DNA of 64,000 bases from Chloroflexota bacterium (GTDB lineage: Bacteria > Chloroflexota > Dehalococcoidia > UBA2979), in contig BTUI01000009.1 of the NCBI GenBank assembly GCA_045863195.1, positions 51,951 through 115,950 on the forward strand. Direction: 5' to 3'. The translations under genes and the position numbers were made by a program. The notes under the pieces are model-generated. The model saw only the letters and a list, made by a program, of their open reading frames with translations, searched no databases and had not been told where the DNA came from. Position 1 is the first letter of the stretch, and each line of letters starts with the position of its first letter. Of this stretch, positions 58,252 to 64,000 are shown one piece after another.

Positions 58252-59076
58252 TCACGCCTCGGGCGGGAGTCCCGGGCGGATGAGGCGGTCGTACAGGAGG
58301 CCGCCGGCGAGCCCGCCGATGAGCGGCCCCGCGAGGTAGACCCAGAAGCCGCCACGCGGGCCGGGGATCGCGATCTCGCCCCACCCCGCCGCGAGCGCGA
58401 CGAGCCTTGGCCCGAGGTCGCGCGCCGGATTCCACCCGGCCTGTGTCGCGGGCGCGAACAGGCTGATGAGTACGGCCACCGTGAAGCCGATGAAGAACGG
58501 GGCGAGCCACTTCGGCCGGACGCCGTTCCGGGGCTCGGTCAGGGCGAAGATCATGCACACCAGCACAGCCGTCCCGAACGCCTCGATGCCTGCGGCCATC
58601 AGCGGGGAGACCAGTGCTTCCGCCTCCGGCCCCGTGCCGAAGATCGCCGGGTTCGGGAAGTACTCGCCGAAGACCATCGCGGAGCGCTCGGAGCCGGGCG
58701 CGCCGCGCTCGATCCCCTCGGCGGCCTCGAACCGCTCGATGAACGGGTGGAAGGTGGCGAGGACGACCGCGCCCGCGAGCGCCGCGCCCGCGAGTTGCGC
58801 TCCCCAGTAGGGAAGGACGCGCGACCTCGGGAAGGTGTCCGGTCGCAGGACGGCGACAGCGAGCGTCACCGCCGGGTTCAGGTGCGCTCCGGACACGGCG
58901 GCGGTCGCGTAGATCGCGAGCGTGACGCCGAAGCCCCAGACCACGGCCACCTGCCAGAGGCCGACCTGGGCGCCGGTCACCACCGCGGCGGCGACTGACC
59001 CGGTGCCGAACAACACCAGCAGGAAGGTTCCGACGACCTCCGCGGTGCAGGCGCGTGCGAGCGAGGTCGAGGTCAC
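58252..59076 (-). CDS. MIP-family aquaglyceroporin (AqpS/GlpF-like)
   Basis: Two NPA boxes (HLNPAV, NPARD). The GTG start forms a GTGA overlap with the upstream arsC-like stop. Confidence 0.85.
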   Translation of the reverse strand: MTSTSLARACTAEVVGTFLLVLFGTGSVAAAVVTGAQVGLWQVAVVWGFGVTLAIYATAAVSGAHLNPAVTLAVAVLRPDTFPRSRVLPYWGAQLAGAALAGAVVLATFHPFIERFEAAEGIERGAPGSERSAMVFGEYFPNPAIFGTGPEAEALVSPLMAAGIEAFGTAVLVCMIFALTEPRNGVRPKWLAPFFIGFTVAVLISLFAPATQAGWNPARDLGPRLVALAAGWGEIAIPGPRGGFWVYLAGPLIGGLAGGLLYDRLIRPGLPPEA

Positions 59077-59714
59077 CGGCCCACCGGCTGGTGCGACTCG
59101 ACCGCGATCCCGAGTTCCGCGAGCAGCCACATGACGCGGTCGCGGATCTCGTCACGGATGCGGCGCACCACCTCGATCCCCTGTCCGGCCGGGTCGTCTA
59201 GTTCCCAGTCCAGGTAGCGCTTACCGGGGTAGATGGTGCACGCGTCGCCGCAGCCCATGGTGATCACCACGTCCGCCGCCTCCACGAGTTCGTCCGTGAG
59301 CGGCTTTGGGAACTCCTGGTCGAGCGAGAGCCCGAGCTCCGCCATCGCCTCGCGCACCACGGGGTTGATCTCCCACGCCGGCGCGGAGCCGGCGGAGCGG
59401 ACGTGCACCCGGTCGCCGCCAAGGGCCGCCGTCAGAACCGCCGCCATCTGCGACCGGCCCGCATTGTGGACGCAGACGAACAGGACTTCCGGGACGTCCT
59501 TCCGGATCGTGCCGCGGGCCTGTGCCAGCGCCGTCAGGCGCTCGCGCGCCGTGCGCCGCGCGAAGAGCGGCACGAACGCGTCGATGCGCGCTCGGGCGAA
59601 GTGCTCCGTCGCCTGCTCCATGTACCGCAGCACGGTCTCGCGGCTCACCTGGCCGGCGAACTCCGCCGCCAGCAGTTCCGCTTCGTGCCGCAGTCGCTCG
59701 TCACGGTCGTCCAT
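59073..59714 (-). CDS. arsC: LMW-PTP-family arsenate reductase (Trx-coupled ArsC type) with about 75-aa N-terminal helical extension
   Basis: P-loop CVHNAGRS; second/third Cys in TMGCGDAC; 213 aa. Confidence 0.7.
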   Translation of the reverse strand: MDDRDERLRHEAELLAAEFAGQVSRETVLRYMEQATEHFARARIDAFVPLFARRTARERLTALAQARGTIRKDVPEVLFVCVHNAGRSQMAAVLTAALGGDRVHVRSAGSAPAWEINPVVREAMAELGLSLDQEFPKPLTDELVEAADVVITMGCGDACTIYPGKRYLDWELDDPAGQGIEVVRRIRDEIRDRVMWLLAELGIAVESHQPVGR

Positions 59715-59715
59715 C

Positions 59716-60420
59716 TCACTCCCCCGCCTGCGGCACGCGGTGCCGCGTCCGTGGCCGCACGTGCTGGGCGAGCGTGCTGACACGCGCTTCCAGCCGGTGC
59801 AGCGCCGCTTCGAAGTCCTCCGGTCGCCCGCCCGCCGCCGGGTCAGGCACCGACCAGTGCAGGTCCGCCGGGGGCGCGCCGCGTTCCTCGTGCGCCTGGT
59901 CGCACACCGTGACCACGAGGTCACCGGGACGCGCGACCGCACCGAGTTCGGCCGGGGCGTGGTCGAGGTCCAGGCCGGCGCGCTCCGCCGTCGCGCGTGC
60001 CAGCGGATGCACCTCGGGCGCCGGGTGCGTGCCGGCGCTCGCGACGCCGACGGCGGCGCCGGAGCGACGCCAGAGCGCCTCCGCCAGCGGCGAGCGCGCC
60101 GAGTTCGCCGTGCAGACAAAGAGCACCCGGTCTGCCTCCAGCGGCGCGCCCCGCTCCGGCAGCATCGCGCGTCCCGCCTCGGTCAGCACGAGGTAGCGAC
60201 GGCGATGGTCGCCCGCGGAGACGCGGCGCTCGATGAGCCCGGCCGCCTCCAGGGTGCGGAGGTGGTGGGCGAGCAGGTTGGACGGCACCGCCAACGCCGC
60301 TTCCACCTCGGACGGGGCGAGGTCGGTGAGCGCGAGCGCCTCGACGATCGCCAGCCGGAGCGGTTCGCCGAGGGCGGCGTGCGCGGCCGCGCGGGCCGTG
60401 AGGGCGGCGGTGAACTCCAT
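59716..60420 (-). CDS. arsR: ArsR-family HTH regulator fused to an LMW-PTP/ArsC-like domain
   Basis: N-terminus LRLAIVEAL..LLAHHLRTLEAAGLIERR (ArsR wHTH); C-terminus VLFVCTANSARS (CX5R P-loop) and VTVCDQAHEE. Confidence 0.75.
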   Translation of the reverse strand: MEFTAALTARAAAHAALGEPLRLAIVEALALTDLAPSEVEAALAVPSNLLAHHLRTLEAAGLIERRVSAGDHRRRYLVLTEAGRAMLPERGAPLEADRVLFVCTANSARSPLAEALWRRSGAAVGVASAGTHPAPEVHPLARATAERAGLDLDHAPAELGAVARPGDLVVTVCDQAHEERGAPPADLHWSVPDPAAGGRPEDFEAALHRLEARVSTLAQHVRPRTRHRVPQAGE

Positions 60421-60448: not shown

Positions 60449-60598
60449 TGAGTCAAGATGTATCGAGTGATAGCACGCCAGCCGAGGGGCGCACGCCCCC
60501 GCTGCCGAGGGGCATTAGACCTCGGGCGGGAGTCTCGGTAGGATTCTGCCGGACTCTGCCCCGACGGCGCGTGCCGTCCGCGCGGAAAGGCTCAGCGC

Positions 60599-61795
60599 GT
60601 GGCGTTCGTCATTACCGAGACCTGCATCGACACGCGGGACCAGGCGTGTGTGGACGTTTGCCCGGTGGATTGCATCCACTTCGAAGATGGCAAAGACCGC
60701 ATGCTCTACATCAACCCTGCGGAATGCATCGACTGCGGGGCGTGCCAGCCGGCCTGCCCCGTCAGCGCGATCTTCCCGGAGGGTGACGTCCCGGCGAACC
60801 TGAACCGGTTCATCGAGATCAACTCGCTCTGGTACGAGAACGCGGACGCCGCCCGCGCCAAGGTCGGCGGTGGCGGTGGTGCCGCCGCGCCGGCCGCTGC
60901 TCCGGCGGCCGCGCCCGCCGAGGGCGGTGAAGCGCCGGCCGAGGCCCCCGCTGCTGCGGAGGCCGCGCCCGTTGCCGCTGCCGCCGCGCCCGCGGCCCCG
61001 GCCGCGAAGGCCGCCCCGGTGGCGGCGGTACAGCAGGTGCCCGCGGTTCCGGTCGGAAGCCACGGCGGCGTCCAGGCCTCGAAGTACCGCCTCCCGAAGG
61101 CGACCGGTGTCGCCTCCCTCGCCGCGTTCGCGGCGGCGGTGTATGTGATGTTCGTCTTCCCCGGCCCAACCTGGATCGAACTGTCCTGGGCGGAGGGGTT
61201 GTTCAAGGCGATCGGCATCGACAACGGTGGCGGCGTGGGCATCACGGTGGCGCTGCTGCTGCCGCTGGCGCCGCTGCTGCTCCTCGTCCACCTCGCGATC
61301 CAGTTCGGCGACTTCAACAAGTTCGCCGCCTCGCACGAGCGCAACCTCGCCAAGTGGCGGGCGCGCGGCCCGCAGTGGCGGCGCAACGAGGAGTCCCGCC
61401 GCTACCTGCTCGCGGAGACGGTCGCCGCGATCGCCAAGGACCGCTTCGACTACACGCCCGAGGTCGGCGTGAAGACGTACGTGAACCTCCCGGAGCCCCA
61501 GATGGGCGTGGAGGTCCGCGGCACGGGCGACAAGGTCTTCCCGGACATCGTTACGCTGCGCCCCGGCAACCAGCCGGTCGCCATCGTGCAGGTGGAGACG
61601 AAGGAGACGGTCACGCGCGACCAGGCGGCGTACGTCTGGGCGATGCTGGAGAACCGCACCTGCCCGCTCTACATTTACGTCCCCGCCGGCATGCTCCGCC
61701 GCGCGAAGGACTACGCGAAGGCGGTCGGGCTGAAGAACGTGAAGTTCCGCACCTGGCGCTGGAGCCCCAACGGCATGGTCGTGAAGGAGGCGTAG
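60599..61795 (+). CDS. 7Fe (FdxA-type) ferredoxin domain fused via Ala/Pro-rich linker and a TM segment to a C-terminal PD-(D/E)xK-like domain
   Basis: N-terminus CIDTRDQACVDVCPVDCI...CIDCGACQPACP (3Fe-4S/4Fe-4S pattern); linker AAAPAAAPAAAPAEGG..; TM helices; C-terminus ..PDIVTLRPGNQPVAIVQVETKE.. (PD...ExK). Confidence 0.6.
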   Translation: MAFVITETCIDTRDQACVDVCPVDCIHFEDGKDRMLYINPAECIDCGACQPACPVSAIFPEGDVPANLNRFIEINSLWYENADAARAKVGGGGGAAAPAAAPAAAPAEGGEAPAEAPAAAEAAPVAAAAAPAAPAAKAAPVAAVQQVPAVPVGSHGGVQASKYRLPKATGVASLAAFAAAVYVMFVFPGPTWIELSWAEGLFKAIGIDNGGGVGITVALLLPLAPLLLLVHLAIQFGDFNKFAASHERNLAKWRARGPQWRRNEESRRYLLAETVAAIAKDRFDYTPEVGVKTYVNLPEPQMGVEVRGTGDKVFPDIVTLRPGNQPVAIVQVETKETVTRDQAAYVWAMLENRTCPLYIYVPAGMLRRAKDYAKAVGLKNVKFRTWRWSPNGMVVKEA

Positions 61796-61822
61796 TCCTC
61801 CACACCCTCGGCGATGACAGAC

Positions 61823-61852
61823 GGCCCCGGCACCTGCCGGGGCCGTTTCGTT
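61823..61852 (+). terminator. intrinsic terminator GGCCCCGGC-acct-GCCGGGGCC followed by GTTTCGTT
   Basis: 9-bp GC stem plus T-rich tail immediately after the ferredoxin-fusion stop. Confidence 0.55.
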
Positions 61853-61940
61853 GGCGCTCGTTGTGGGCCGGTGGGTGCGGCCAGGAGACGCGTAGGATCG
61901 GGCCGCGTTCGTTGCGTGCTGCATCCAGGGAGGTGCCCCC

Positions 61941-62336
61941 ATGCCGCGGTTCGTCGTCGACGCTGGCGTCGTGCTCCACCTGGCCAGCACCGGCTTCGAG
62001 GTCGGCACGGATCACCGCCTGCTCGCGCCCACGCTGCTGCGCTCGCAGGTGCTGTCCGTGCTGCACGAGGCGGTCCAGCGAGGCGACCTGCCCGCAGACG
62101 TTGCTCGAGGCCAGCTCAAGCGGGTGGGGAAGATGCCGATCCGGCTCCTTGGCGACGCGGTCCTGCGCGAGCGGGCCTGGCAGGTAGCGGACCAGCTGGG
62201 GTGGCCGTCGACCTACACGGCGGAGTACATCGCGTTGACGCAGTTGCAGGCGGACGCGTTCGTCACCCTCGATGCGGATCTCGCGCTGAGCGTGCGCGGG
62301 CTGGTGGCGACCGCGTCCGTCGACGACCTGCGCTGA
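61941..62336 (+). CDS. PIN-domain protein (VapC-like), no adjacent antitoxin ORF
   Basis: MPRFVVDAGVVL..D..; ..TLDADL.. acidic residues in PIN spacing; GGGAGG RBS. Confidence 0.65.
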   Translation: MPRFVVDAGVVLHLASTGFEVGTDHRLLAPTLLRSQVLSVLHEAVQRGDLPADVARGQLKRVGKMPIRLLGDAVLRERAWQVADQLGWPSTYTAEYIALTQLQADAFVTLDADLALSVRGLVATASVDDLR

Positions 62337-62358: not shown

Positions 62359-63078
62359 CTACGGGATCGAGGCGATGCGGCCCGCCTTCAGGACGTTCTT
62401 GAGCGCCTCGCGCTTGCTGAGGGGGCTGAGGCGGTCCGCGTGCGCCGTCACGTACCGCACCACCTCGTCCGGGTCGGTCCAGGCGTACTGGCGGAGCGCC
62501 CAACCGATCGCCTTGCGGATGAAGAACTCGCGGTCGCCCAGATTCGGCTCGATGCAGTCGTACAGCAGGCGCAGGTCGGTCGCCTGCTTGTGCTTCAACT
62601 GGCAGATGATGGCAGCGCGCCGCTTCCACATCTCGGGCGCGGTGCTCCACTCGCGCATGCGGGCCGCCGTCCAGTCGGGCTCGCGTTGGTGCAGTTCGTC
62701 GAGCAGATTGCCGGCGGTCTCGTCGACCAGGTCCCACCACGCGCCGGTGACCACGAACTCCTCGTACATCGGGAATGCCGCGCGCGTCCGGTGCCCCCGG
62801 TAGAGGCGGTGCTGCGCCAGCGCGAGCGTCGCGTATCGTTCCTCGCGGTGGGTCGCCTCGCGCCACAGGGCGAGCACGGTGTCGCGCCAGTCATCGAACC
62901 CGTCGAGGGGATGCGTGGCGAAGACCTCGCGGAAGATGCGTTGCACCTGCGGGAGCGTGACGCCGTAGTAGGGCATCGTGGACTTCATGTAGTGCTGCAT
63001 CTGCGGCGCTTTCGCCGGGTCGGCGGCGGCCTGCAGCGCCTCGCGGACGGCGGCGATGAGCACGCGGTCGGCGGTCAC
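62359..63078 (-). CDS. DNA alkylation repair protein (AlkC/AlkD HEAT-like repeat family)
   Basis: ..QMQHYMKSTMPYYGV..; ..REFFIRKAIGWALRQY.. typical AlkD. The GTG start forms a GTGA overlap with the DUF488 gene. Confidence 0.75.
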   Translation of the reverse strand: MTADRVLIAAVREALQAAADPAKAPQMQHYMKSTMPYYGVTLPQVQRIFREVFATHPLDGFDDWRDTVLALWREATHREERYATLALAQHRLYRGHRTRAAFPMYEEFVVTGAWWDLVDETAGNLLDELHQREPDWTAARMREWSTAPEMWKRRAAIICQLKHKQATDLRLLYDCIEPNLGDREFFIRKAIGWALRQYAWTDPDEVVRYVTAHADRLSPLSKREALKNVLKAGRIASIP

Positions 63079-63437
63079 GACGCCCCGCTCAGCCGCTCCC
63101 GGATGACCGCGGCCAGCACGGCGCGGTGGCACGCCGTCTCGTCCGCGGCCTCGCCGAGCAACACCACGCCCGTCCCGGCGGCCATCCGTGCGGCCCACGC
63201 CACGAGGTTGGCGCGCCCCGCCAGCTCCTCCCGGTAGCGCGCCTCGAACGTCGCGGGGTCGAGCGCCCCGGCGTCGCGCGCCGCCTCGAGGGCAACGCTG
63301 GGCGCGAGGTCGGGCTCCCACTGGTCGACCGCGCGGCGGTCGATGCCGGCGGGCCAGCGCCGTGTGGTCAGCAGGCGCGGCAGGGGATCCTCGGGCGGTG
63401 CGTGGACGCTTCCGAGGACGATGCGCGCTTCGCTCAA
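63075..63437 (-). CDS. DUF488-family protein
   Basis: ..WPAGIDRRAVDQWEPDLAPS..LR..F..DP.. pattern. TTG start overlapping the upstream stop (TTGA). Confidence 0.6.
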   Translation of the reverse strand: MSEARIVLGSVHAPPEDPLPRLLTTRRWPAGIDRRAVDQWEPDLAPSVALEAARDAGALDPATFEARYREELAGRANLVAWAARMAAGTGVVLLGEAADETACHRAVLAAVIRERLSGAS

Positions 63438-64000
63438 CGCGTGGCCGCCATCGTGTGCGCGAGCGCGCCCGGCAGCCCGAGGTCGGGGGCGCCCGCGAGC
63501 GATCCGACCGACTGCAGCTCGCCGGCGTGCGAGAAGACGTGCGCGGCGCTTCGGGCGACCTGCACGCCGATGGGGCCGCGAGTACGACCGGCCTCGATCG
63601 CCGCGCCGAGCGCTGCTGCGTCGAGGCTGGCGAGCCACGCGTCGGCCGTTGCGAGCGTGCGCCCCATCGCATCGAGCACCTCGGACGGCGGCACCGGCGC
63701 GGGCGGGGCTCGGAAGTCGAACGAGCCGACGAACGGGTCGGCGTCGCGGCGCTGCGCGAGCACGTTCCAGAAGCGGTCCTCGCGCGCGAGGGTGTGGAGG
63801 GCGGTGTAGGAGCCGGGGTTGAGCGACACGATCTCGCCGGTCAACGCCGGCAGCGGCAGCGCCGCGAACGTCCGCCGGAGTTCCACGTAGCCATCGCGCA
63901 GCAGCGCCGCCACCATCGATGCGGAGGCATCGTCGGTGTCGATACCCTCGGTGGTGCGGGTGAGCGGGCCGGGGAGCCCGAGGTCTCCCGCGCCGGCGAG
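63434..64000 (-). CDS. DinB_2/DUF664-like protein; the frame stays open to the window edge (5'-partial or tandem repeat)
   Basis: 160-aa ORF from 63916. The same frame upstream to 64000 has no stop and repeats the motif LAGA(P/G)DLGLPG(A/P)L. Confidence 0.45.
   Translation of the reverse strand, partial: LAGAGDLGLPGPLTRTTEGIDTDDASASMVAALLRDGYVELRRTFAALPLPALTGEIVSLNPGSYTALHTLAREDRFWNVLAQRRDADPFVGSFDFRAPPAPVPPSEVLDAMGRTLATADAWLASLDAAALGAAIEAGRTRGPIGVQVARSAAHVFSHAGELQSVGSLAGAPDLGLPGALAHTMAATR

Follow-up and report, generated by a model that had tools for sequence, protein, structure and literature searches.

The locus described here raises a simple question: why should a ferredoxin, normally a free and diffusible carrier, be built into one polypeptide with a membrane anchor and a domain of the restriction endonuclease (REase) fold? 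The gene lies in a window of 64 kb of Chloroflexota DNA (contig BTUI01000009.1), the window being the whole stretch that was analyzed. It occupies positions 60599..61795 of the plus strand, where the initial annotation had placed it, starts with GTG and encodes 398 amino acids (aa) followed by a stop. A Shine-Dalgarno-like GGAAAGG, read from the sequence 8 nt 5' of the start codon (60584..60590, plus strand), may function as such. The encoded protein consists of a 7Fe ferredoxin, a low-complexity linker, a hairpin of two transmembrane (TM) helices, a basic juxtamembrane segment and a C-terminal REase-fold domain (C-domain). We tentatively read it as a membrane-anchored "ferredoxin on a leash", both of whose ends would be cytoplasmic. 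Its parts are of known kinds, namely a 7Fe ferredoxin and a member of the PD-(D/E)xK superfamily, and the family of the C-domain has no model in the two family-model databases used throughout, Pfam (2025 copy) and NCBIfam (release 20). The architecture appears undescribed, as had been proposed from the sequence: no family model covers it, and no description of a ferredoxin/membrane-hairpin/REase-fold protein was found in a literature search.

Architecture and conservation of the fusion protein

Residues 1-87 (60599..60859, plus strand) form a 7Fe ([3Fe-4S][4Fe-4S]) ferredoxin domain of the FdxA type, according to PDB, NCBIfam and Pfam matches, in line with the initial annotation. In a PDB sequence search, residues 1-82 matched solved 7Fe ferredoxins with E-values of 1e-22 to 1e-16; the best matches were FdxA of M. 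smegmatis (2v2k, 1.3e-22) and the ferredoxin of Thermus thermophilus (1h98, 3.2e-22), followed by the Bacillus schlegelii ferredoxin (1bc6, 6e-21) and, down to about 1e-16, Azotobacter FdI. The window protein has in common with these proteins both the pattern of cysteine ligands and a match at the level of the fold. They are soluble and stand alone, at lengths of 77-107 aa, whereas here the ferredoxin leads on to a linker, a hairpin and a second domain. The predicted ligands are C9, C17, C21, C43, C46, C49 and C53, arranged as C9-x7-C17-x3-C21-P ... C43-x2-C46-x2-C49-x3-C53-P, with C25 as an additional free cysteine; the first of these two motifs had been given correctly, while one cysteine had been dropped from the second. 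The best NCBIfam model is FdxA_Actino (E 1.2e-30), whose score of 106 bits falls short of the 125 bits required of an equivalog: the domain ends at about residue 87 and covers only profile positions 1-84 of 107. The long C-terminal helix of the 106-aa FdxA type is thus lacking, and judged by its sequence the domain is FdxA-like without being an FdxA_Actino equivalog. The Pfam models Fer4 and Fer4_7 also match the N-terminus.

Among 40 orthologues all cysteines are invariant apart from C9. Five of these orthologues (P0014-P0018) are called from an internal Met ("MDQ/K..CVxVCPVDC") downstream of C9 and would thereby lack the ligand that comes first; these are probably miscalled start codons and not true 6-Cys variants. 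The ferredoxin part is about 70% identical to free ferredoxins of related Chloroflexota (L010-L012, L015-L017), and this near-identity gives no hint of a lost carrier function, so that the domain may still carry electrons. These free proteins measure 95-100 aa, and the length of 100-110 aa that had been taken as usual for stand-alone FdxA does not apply to this Chloroflexota subtype. Three forms of the subtype were seen at the translated loci: the fusion of 367-410 aa, the free form, and a form in which a low-complexity linker leads to another small module. The last is represented by a ferredoxin joined to DUF2795 (229 aa; L005, 19-708; Pfam E 2.7e-5) and by one with a zinc-ribbon-like CxxC...CxxC tail (187 aa; L013, 10001-10564), which sits in the serS-linked locus otherwise occupied by the REase-fold fusion. 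Since the same ferredoxin is joined to varied small modules, the C-terminal modules fit a role as address or anchor for a conserved carrier.

The ferredoxin is followed by a flexible Ala/Pro/Glu-rich linker of low complexity (residues 88-163; 60860..61087, plus strand), delimited by composition and by an AlphaFold2 (AF2) model of the full-length protein. Its Ala/Pro character is borne out family-wide (A 42%, P 15%, E 10%), and its length is about 75 aa here, against the 90 or so first estimated, and 57 to 96 aa among orthologues, its sequence being variable too. The mean predicted local distance difference test score (pLDDT) of the full-length model is 75. In this model the ferredoxin is folded, residues 91-163 are disordered (pLDDT <50), two helices span residues 168-186 and 215-245, residues 253-261 are again disordered with low pLDDT, and the C-domain (264-397) is confidently predicted. 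A linker that is disordered and variable in both length and sequence would be a poor allosteric conduit and a suitable tether.

The two modelled helices correspond to TM helix 1 (residues 168-190; 61100..61168, plus strand; Kyte-Doolittle hydropathy about 2.0), which is preceded by a conserved Y-x-L-P-S/K-P motif and is hydrophobic in all orthologues, and to TM helix 2 (residues 211-236; 61229..61306, plus strand; hydropathy up to 2.44). A basic juxtamembrane segment comes next (residues 237-263; 61307..61387, plus strand) and would mark the cytoplasmic side; F242, W253 and R254 are invariant in it, and R261 and R262 nearly so. Among the orthologues, the 26 residues after TM helix 2 contain on average 7.2 Lys and Arg, compared to 0.8 in the loop between the helices. 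This positive-inside bias, together with the need of an Fe-S domain that has no signal peptide to fold in the cytoplasm, predicts a cytoplasmic location for both ends, i.e. the protein would be a two-pass hairpin of N-in/C-in topology. The membrane anchor that had been proposed from two hydrophobic stretches is thus supported by hydropathy, by the model and by the charge distribution.

A search with residues 161-398 retrieved 61 clusters, nearly all of 370-415 aa and carrying a precomputed Fer4 annotation, and the same five-part architecture is found throughout the 40-sequence alignment. The mean identity between the window protein and its orthologues is highest in the ferredoxin (75.5%) and the C-domain (62.8%), and lower in the linker (49.7%) and the hairpin (40.8%). 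The fused reading frame recurs in about 60 independent clusters, drawn from assemblies of NCBI, JGI, ENA and Logan, which upholds the view that the gene is not the product of a frameshift; all genome matches are metagenome-assembled genomes of Chloroflexota, mostly Dehalococcoidia. Two apparently ferredoxin-less members (P0052 and P0003) were considered as an independent architecture and ruled out: in L030 (4480-5001) and L031 (4552-5001) the ferredoxin is found directly upstream in another frame, the frame shifting within the GC-rich low-complexity linker or close to it, probably through assembly errors. In L030 a neighbouring sulfate transporter is likewise split, into three open reading frames (ORFs).

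The DNA around the gene has a GC content of about 70% (range 0.68-0.75), with no compositional break across it. Long ORFs occur in several frames of this region and shadow ORFs are frequent, and homologues were obtained for the plus frame only. One antisense ORF of 497 aa (60515-62008, minus strand) spans the entire fusion gene without homologue support; it is a shadow ORF due to the 70% GC content.

The C-terminal domain and its family

The C-domain (residues 264-398; 61388..61792, plus strand) has the fold of the PD-(D/E)xK superfamily. Its AF2 model, built from a 26-sequence alignment (pLDDT 82, predicted template-modelling score 0.75), runs in the order helix, three strands, helix, strand, helix, two strands, and contains the alpha-beta-beta-beta-alpha-beta core of the superfamily. 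A Foldseek search against the PDB returned weak matches (best E 3e-3). The nearest structures in the superfamily are NgoMIV (1fiu), N.BspD6I, YaeQ (2g3w), AF1548 (1y88), NucS, TT1808/Uma2 (1wdj) and XisH (2okf). Non-nuclease proteins of the fold, YaeQ, ERCC1 and FAAP24, are among the structural neighbours. The domain matched no Pfam or NCBIfam model even at E <= 10, and nothing meaningful came out of PDB sequence searches, whether the query was the single protein or one of two profiles.

The PD and (D/E)xK elements of the superfamily have canonical places, with Pro-Asp opening strand 2 and, 15-17 residues on, an acidic residue closing strand 3. In the model, P315-D316 directly precede core strand 2 (317-321) and Q331-V-E333 closes strand 3, in agreement with these places. 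On conservation, the putative active-site stretch comprises residues 315-336 (P315-D316 ... Q331-V-E333-T-K335-E336; 61541..61606, plus strand), in which all 40 fusion orthologues keep P315, D316, Q331, E333 and E336. The fold and the FPDIV...VQVETKE stretch noted in the initial annotation therefore stand, whereas the lysine of its "ExK" does not: 24 orthologues have R at position 335, 13 have K, and single ones have P, W or G, while in stand-alone relatives the residue is non-basic. The invariant Lys required by (D/E)-x-K is absent, also from the alternative register Q331-x-E333, and a classical catalytic triad is consequently not established. Over 54 family members, the conservation of D316 and of E333 reaches at least 90%. 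Q331, invariant in the fusion clade, is replaced by Glu in most stand-alone relatives (E-V-E-T) and by A, V or H in several. The positions conserved family-wide are N296, P315-D316, V332-E333, W347 and V361-P362, and as far as the alignments go the family signature is PD...(E/Q)xE. The fusion clade shows more than 25 invariant residues in the domain; E264, E336 and many Arg and Trp are additionally invariant there, E264/E265 opening helix 1. No Cys or His is conserved in the 40-sequence fusion alignment, so the domain has no cofactor site of its own.

In BamHI and BglII the catalytic Lys is replaced by E113 and Q95, respectively. The PD...(E/Q)xE signature recalls these enzymes (ExE in BamHI, ExQ in BglII) rather than the classical triad, and the loss of Lys does not in itself exclude catalysis. 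The BamHI-like variant of the site would combine two Glu at i and i+2 with an Asp of strand 2 and a Glu of helix 1; in sequence, most stand-alone relatives have E-V-E-T, and the fusion clade has Q-V-E-T together with E264/E265. The domain keeps the carboxylates of D316 and E333, which make up the metal-binding half of a PD-(D/E)xK site, while Lys is lacking and Gln stands for Glu. We therefore infer that the C-domain is not a nuclease of the restriction type but a module binding a ligand, a nucleic acid or a partner, or, at the most, a phosphodiesterase of a non-classical kind.

The wider family was delineated by a profile search, run exhaustively over 1.84 billion representatives, which gave 285 proteins with E <= 1e-3, 81 of them with E <= 1e-10. 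These members, representatives at 50% identity, come from diverse uncultured bacteria, some of them of candidate division WOR-3; most are stand-alone proteins of 130-180 aa and all are annotated as hypothetical. A Pfam scan of 54 of them gave sub-threshold matches to three families, all of the REase fold: BsuBI_PstI_RE (10 members, best E 0.006), HSDR_N_2 (7 members, 0.0012) and Uma2 (6 members, 0.034). No member among the 54 exceeded the gathering threshold for Uma2/DUF820, HSDR_N_2, BsuBI_PstI_RE or YaeQ, and an NCBIfam scan of the same set gave nothing consistent. The C-domain therefore defines an unannotated branch of the restriction endonuclease superfamily.

The domain was also found in other combinations. 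A membrane hairpin precedes it in P0079 and P0082, and P0147 contains a tandem duplication. In P0089, P0102 and P0106 the domain is N-terminal and is followed by membrane hairpins starting with "H-(M/L)-P-P-P-S-L-A-P", one or two in number and two in P0089 and P0102; P0102 (382 aa) also gave a weak Pfam match to Cyt_c_ox_IV (E 0.007), which might hint at a connection with membrane complexes of respiration. The likeness between these "HMPPPS..." hairpins and that of the fusion, with "L-P-S-P" before TM helix 1, is vague and was set aside as too weak to use. In P0145, P0161, P0165, P0169 and P0189 the domain is followed by a Lys/Ala/Pro-rich tail of 200-270 residues ending in QKRK or QKRR, and these tails resemble the DNA-binding tails of histone H1 and AlgP. 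Four stand-alone relatives located on long contigs had no neighbours in common: one lies in an AbiEii/HNH island, one in a ruvABC/type IV pilus region, one in an nrfD region and one in a hem-gene region.

Possible roles of the protein

In the reading as a leashed ferredoxin, the orthodox 7Fe domain would stay a working low-potential electron carrier, suspended by its disordered linker of 57-96 residues from the two-helix membrane hairpin. The compact REase-fold domain would lie directly under the membrane, after the basic juxtamembrane segment, and together with the hairpin would hold the ferredoxin at a defined site on the cytoplasmic face. Its own contribution could be docking to a partner, binding of nucleic acid or of anionic lipid, or a non-classical phosphodiesterase activity. 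We lean to this reading because the carrier domain is unchanged relative to its free homologues, because the same carrier is also leashed to other small modules, because a floppy 75-residue linker and a hairpin suit tethering rather than allosteric signalling, and because REase-fold domains consume no electrons.

Several known systems offer partial parallels. The lipoyl domains of the E2 subunits of 2-oxoacid dehydrogenase complexes are borne on Ala/Pro-rich swinging-arm linkers, and the linker of the window protein would act in a similar manner: both are long, Ala/Pro-rich and extended, and carry a small cofactor domain. This analogy is mechanical and implies no homology, the cargo here being a membrane-anchored ferredoxin and not a domain bound to an E2 core. 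In AddB, Cas4, Dna2 and Exonuclease V one [4Fe-4S] cluster, held by four Cys, staples the nuclease domain itself. These enzymes combine an Fe-S cluster and the REase fold in one polypeptide, as does the window protein, whose clusters by contrast would reside in a dicluster ferredoxin set apart from the C-domain by about 75 disordered residues and two membrane helices. Covalent tethering of a small bacterial ferredoxin, with localised electron delivery, is seen in natural ferredoxin-P450 fusions such as CYP51-ferredoxin of Methylococcus capsulatus (PMC7947880) and FdxE-CYP143 of M. tuberculosis (bioRxiv 10.1101/2022.11.02.514812). The P450 partner consumes the electrons, whereas the module fused in the window protein has a hydrolase-type fold, lacks a site for a redox cofactor and is separated from the ferredoxin by a membrane anchor.

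Four observations weigh against the leash. The loci contain no conserved co-transcribed gene and no partner was identified at them, which makes any membrane acceptor or donor pure conjecture. The invariant polar residues W253, R254, E264, R267, R282, N296, D316, Q331, E333, E336, Q342, R384, W386 and R387 are far more numerous than a passive anchor needs and indicate a specific activity. The relatives with Lys/Ala/Pro-rich tails hint at a domain family working on DNA. Finally, enzymes of the REase fold are hydrolytic, and this provides a poor rationale for an adjoining redox carrier. If the leash is nevertheless correct, a lineage-wide core gene chaining a ferredoxin to the membrane would hard-wire the place of low-potential electron delivery in Dehalococcoidia-class Chloroflexota, hosts that are known mainly from metagenomes and whose electron-transfer chains are poorly understood.

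The main rival reading takes the protein as a membrane-anchored nuclease. In it the C-domain would cleave DNA or RNA at the membrane as a metal-dependent phosphodiesterase with a BamHI-like site (an acid from helix 1, D316, Q331/E333 and E336), with the ferredoxin as a sensor of redox state, O2 or iron, or as a gating source of electrons. We regard this as doubtful. The REase fold is in place, with PD opening strand 2 and (E/Q)xE closing strand 3, all 285 representatives of the family show conservation of D316 and E333, E264, E336 and many Arg and Trp are invariant in the fusion clade, the precedent of BamHI and BglII allows for catalysis in spite of the missing Lys, and the H1-like tails of some relatives suggest association with DNA. 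Against these stand the first acidic position, where the fusion clade has Gln without exception and several stand-alone relatives have A, V or H, and the absence of any conserved Lys. Moreover, some 75 disordered residues and a hairpin separate the supposed sensor from its effector, which makes direct allosteric control unlikely, the ferredoxin domain is indistinguishable from free carriers, and the gene is monocistronic in a housekeeping locus with no methyltransferase, immunity or repair gene as partner.

The same lost Lys and the Gln at the first acidic position would be natural in a non-catalytic tether or scaffold between nucleoid and membrane. Its REase-fold domain would bind DNA or a different polyanion, anionic lipid head groups for instance, and place the ferredoxin at the interface of chromosome and membrane, or would oligomerise the protein. 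The many invariant Arg and Trp, the very basic juxtamembrane segment, the non-nucleases YaeQ, ERCC1 and FAAP24 among the nearest structural neighbours and the Lys/Ala/Pro-rich tails of relatives are consistent with such a role, and the zinc ribbon and DUF2795 found on the same ferredoxin could also bind nucleic acid. To our knowledge, however, DUF2795 has no established function, DNA binding is purely conjectural, and it is difficult to account for the invariant D316, E333 and E336 unless metal or substrate chemistry is involved. We consider this explanation unlikely.

A further proposal, which seems to us quite improbable, takes the family as a new class of membrane-bound, ferredoxin-coupled nucleic-acid enzymes. 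Its Lys-less PD...(E/Q)xE site would work on DNA or RNA at the cytoplasmic face of the membrane, and through the leashed ferredoxin its activity or localisation would be coupled to the redox or iron status of the cell. If true, it would provide a direct physical link from low-potential electron flow to nucleic-acid processing in Chloroflexota. The branch defined by the C-domain recurs both with membrane hairpins and with DNA-binding-like tails. Learning what the domain targets would annotate hundreds of "hypothetical proteins" and could bring to light either a new docking system for ferredoxins or a redox-linked activity on nucleic acids.

Genomic surroundings

In every long locus the fusion gene stands alone as a monocistronic unit with variable immediate neighbours. 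A few kb away lies a block composed of DinB_2, a small ORF, serS, NUDIX, HAD, Polyketide_cyc2, a lysS/aspS-type synthetase and greA, and this synteny is kept down to orthologues of about 43% identity (L003 and L004). The serS block is the family-wide constant of the locus; the 64-kb window stops inside it, before serS, and contains its opening genes for DNA_alkylation, DUF488 and DinB_2. Neither an island-like context nor a conserved partner (methyltransferase, antitoxin, immunity or repair gene) was found at the fusion loci. Owing to this conserved housekeeping synteny the fusion gene is a vertically inherited core gene, and not part of a defence or mobile island.

The least credible explanation, an artefactual frameshift joining fdxA to a downstream gene or else a defence or toxin island including a PIN ORF, could appeal to the frameshift-prone GC-rich linkers, to the two database relatives frameshifted there and to the PIN-like ORF directly downstream in the window, and is refuted by the comparative data: the frame is open in about 60 independent clusters, the frameshifted relatives break the fusion rather than create it, the composition is uniform (GC 0.68-0.75), the PIN-like ORF has no family support and is absent from L021 and L031, and the synteny is with housekeeping genes.

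This ORF (131 aa; 61941-62336, plus strand) was placed correctly in the initial annotation, as was the ars regulator on the other side of the fusion gene. Its identity as a PIN protein finds no support in Pfam, NCBIfam or PDB sequence searches, and neither neighbour is kept family-wide. In L021 and L031 the PIN-like ORF is missing and the DNA_alkylation gene directly follows the fusion gene, so it was rejected as a functional partner; it looks like a lineage-specific insertion. The ars genes were rejected in the same way, being kept only in the nearest relatives.

The ars-like cluster (58252-60420, minus strand) is divergent from the fusion gene. It consists of a MIP/aquaglyceroporin (58252-59130, minus strand; Pfam MIP E 7.5e-48), a gene for an LMWPc-type phosphatase or ArsC-like protein (about 59112-59492, minus strand) and an ArsR-type helix-turn-helix domain fused to a second LMWPc domain (59716-60420, minus strand). 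The MIP-LMWPc-LMWPc arrangement is also present upstream in L031, and one LMWPc gene in L021; the more distant orthologous loci have none of these genes. On the downstream side the window contains genes for DNA_alkylation (62362-63072, minus strand), DUF488 (63072-63437, minus strand) and DinB_2 (63440-63919, minus strand), which abut or overlap end to end (62359-63919) in an operon-like manner.

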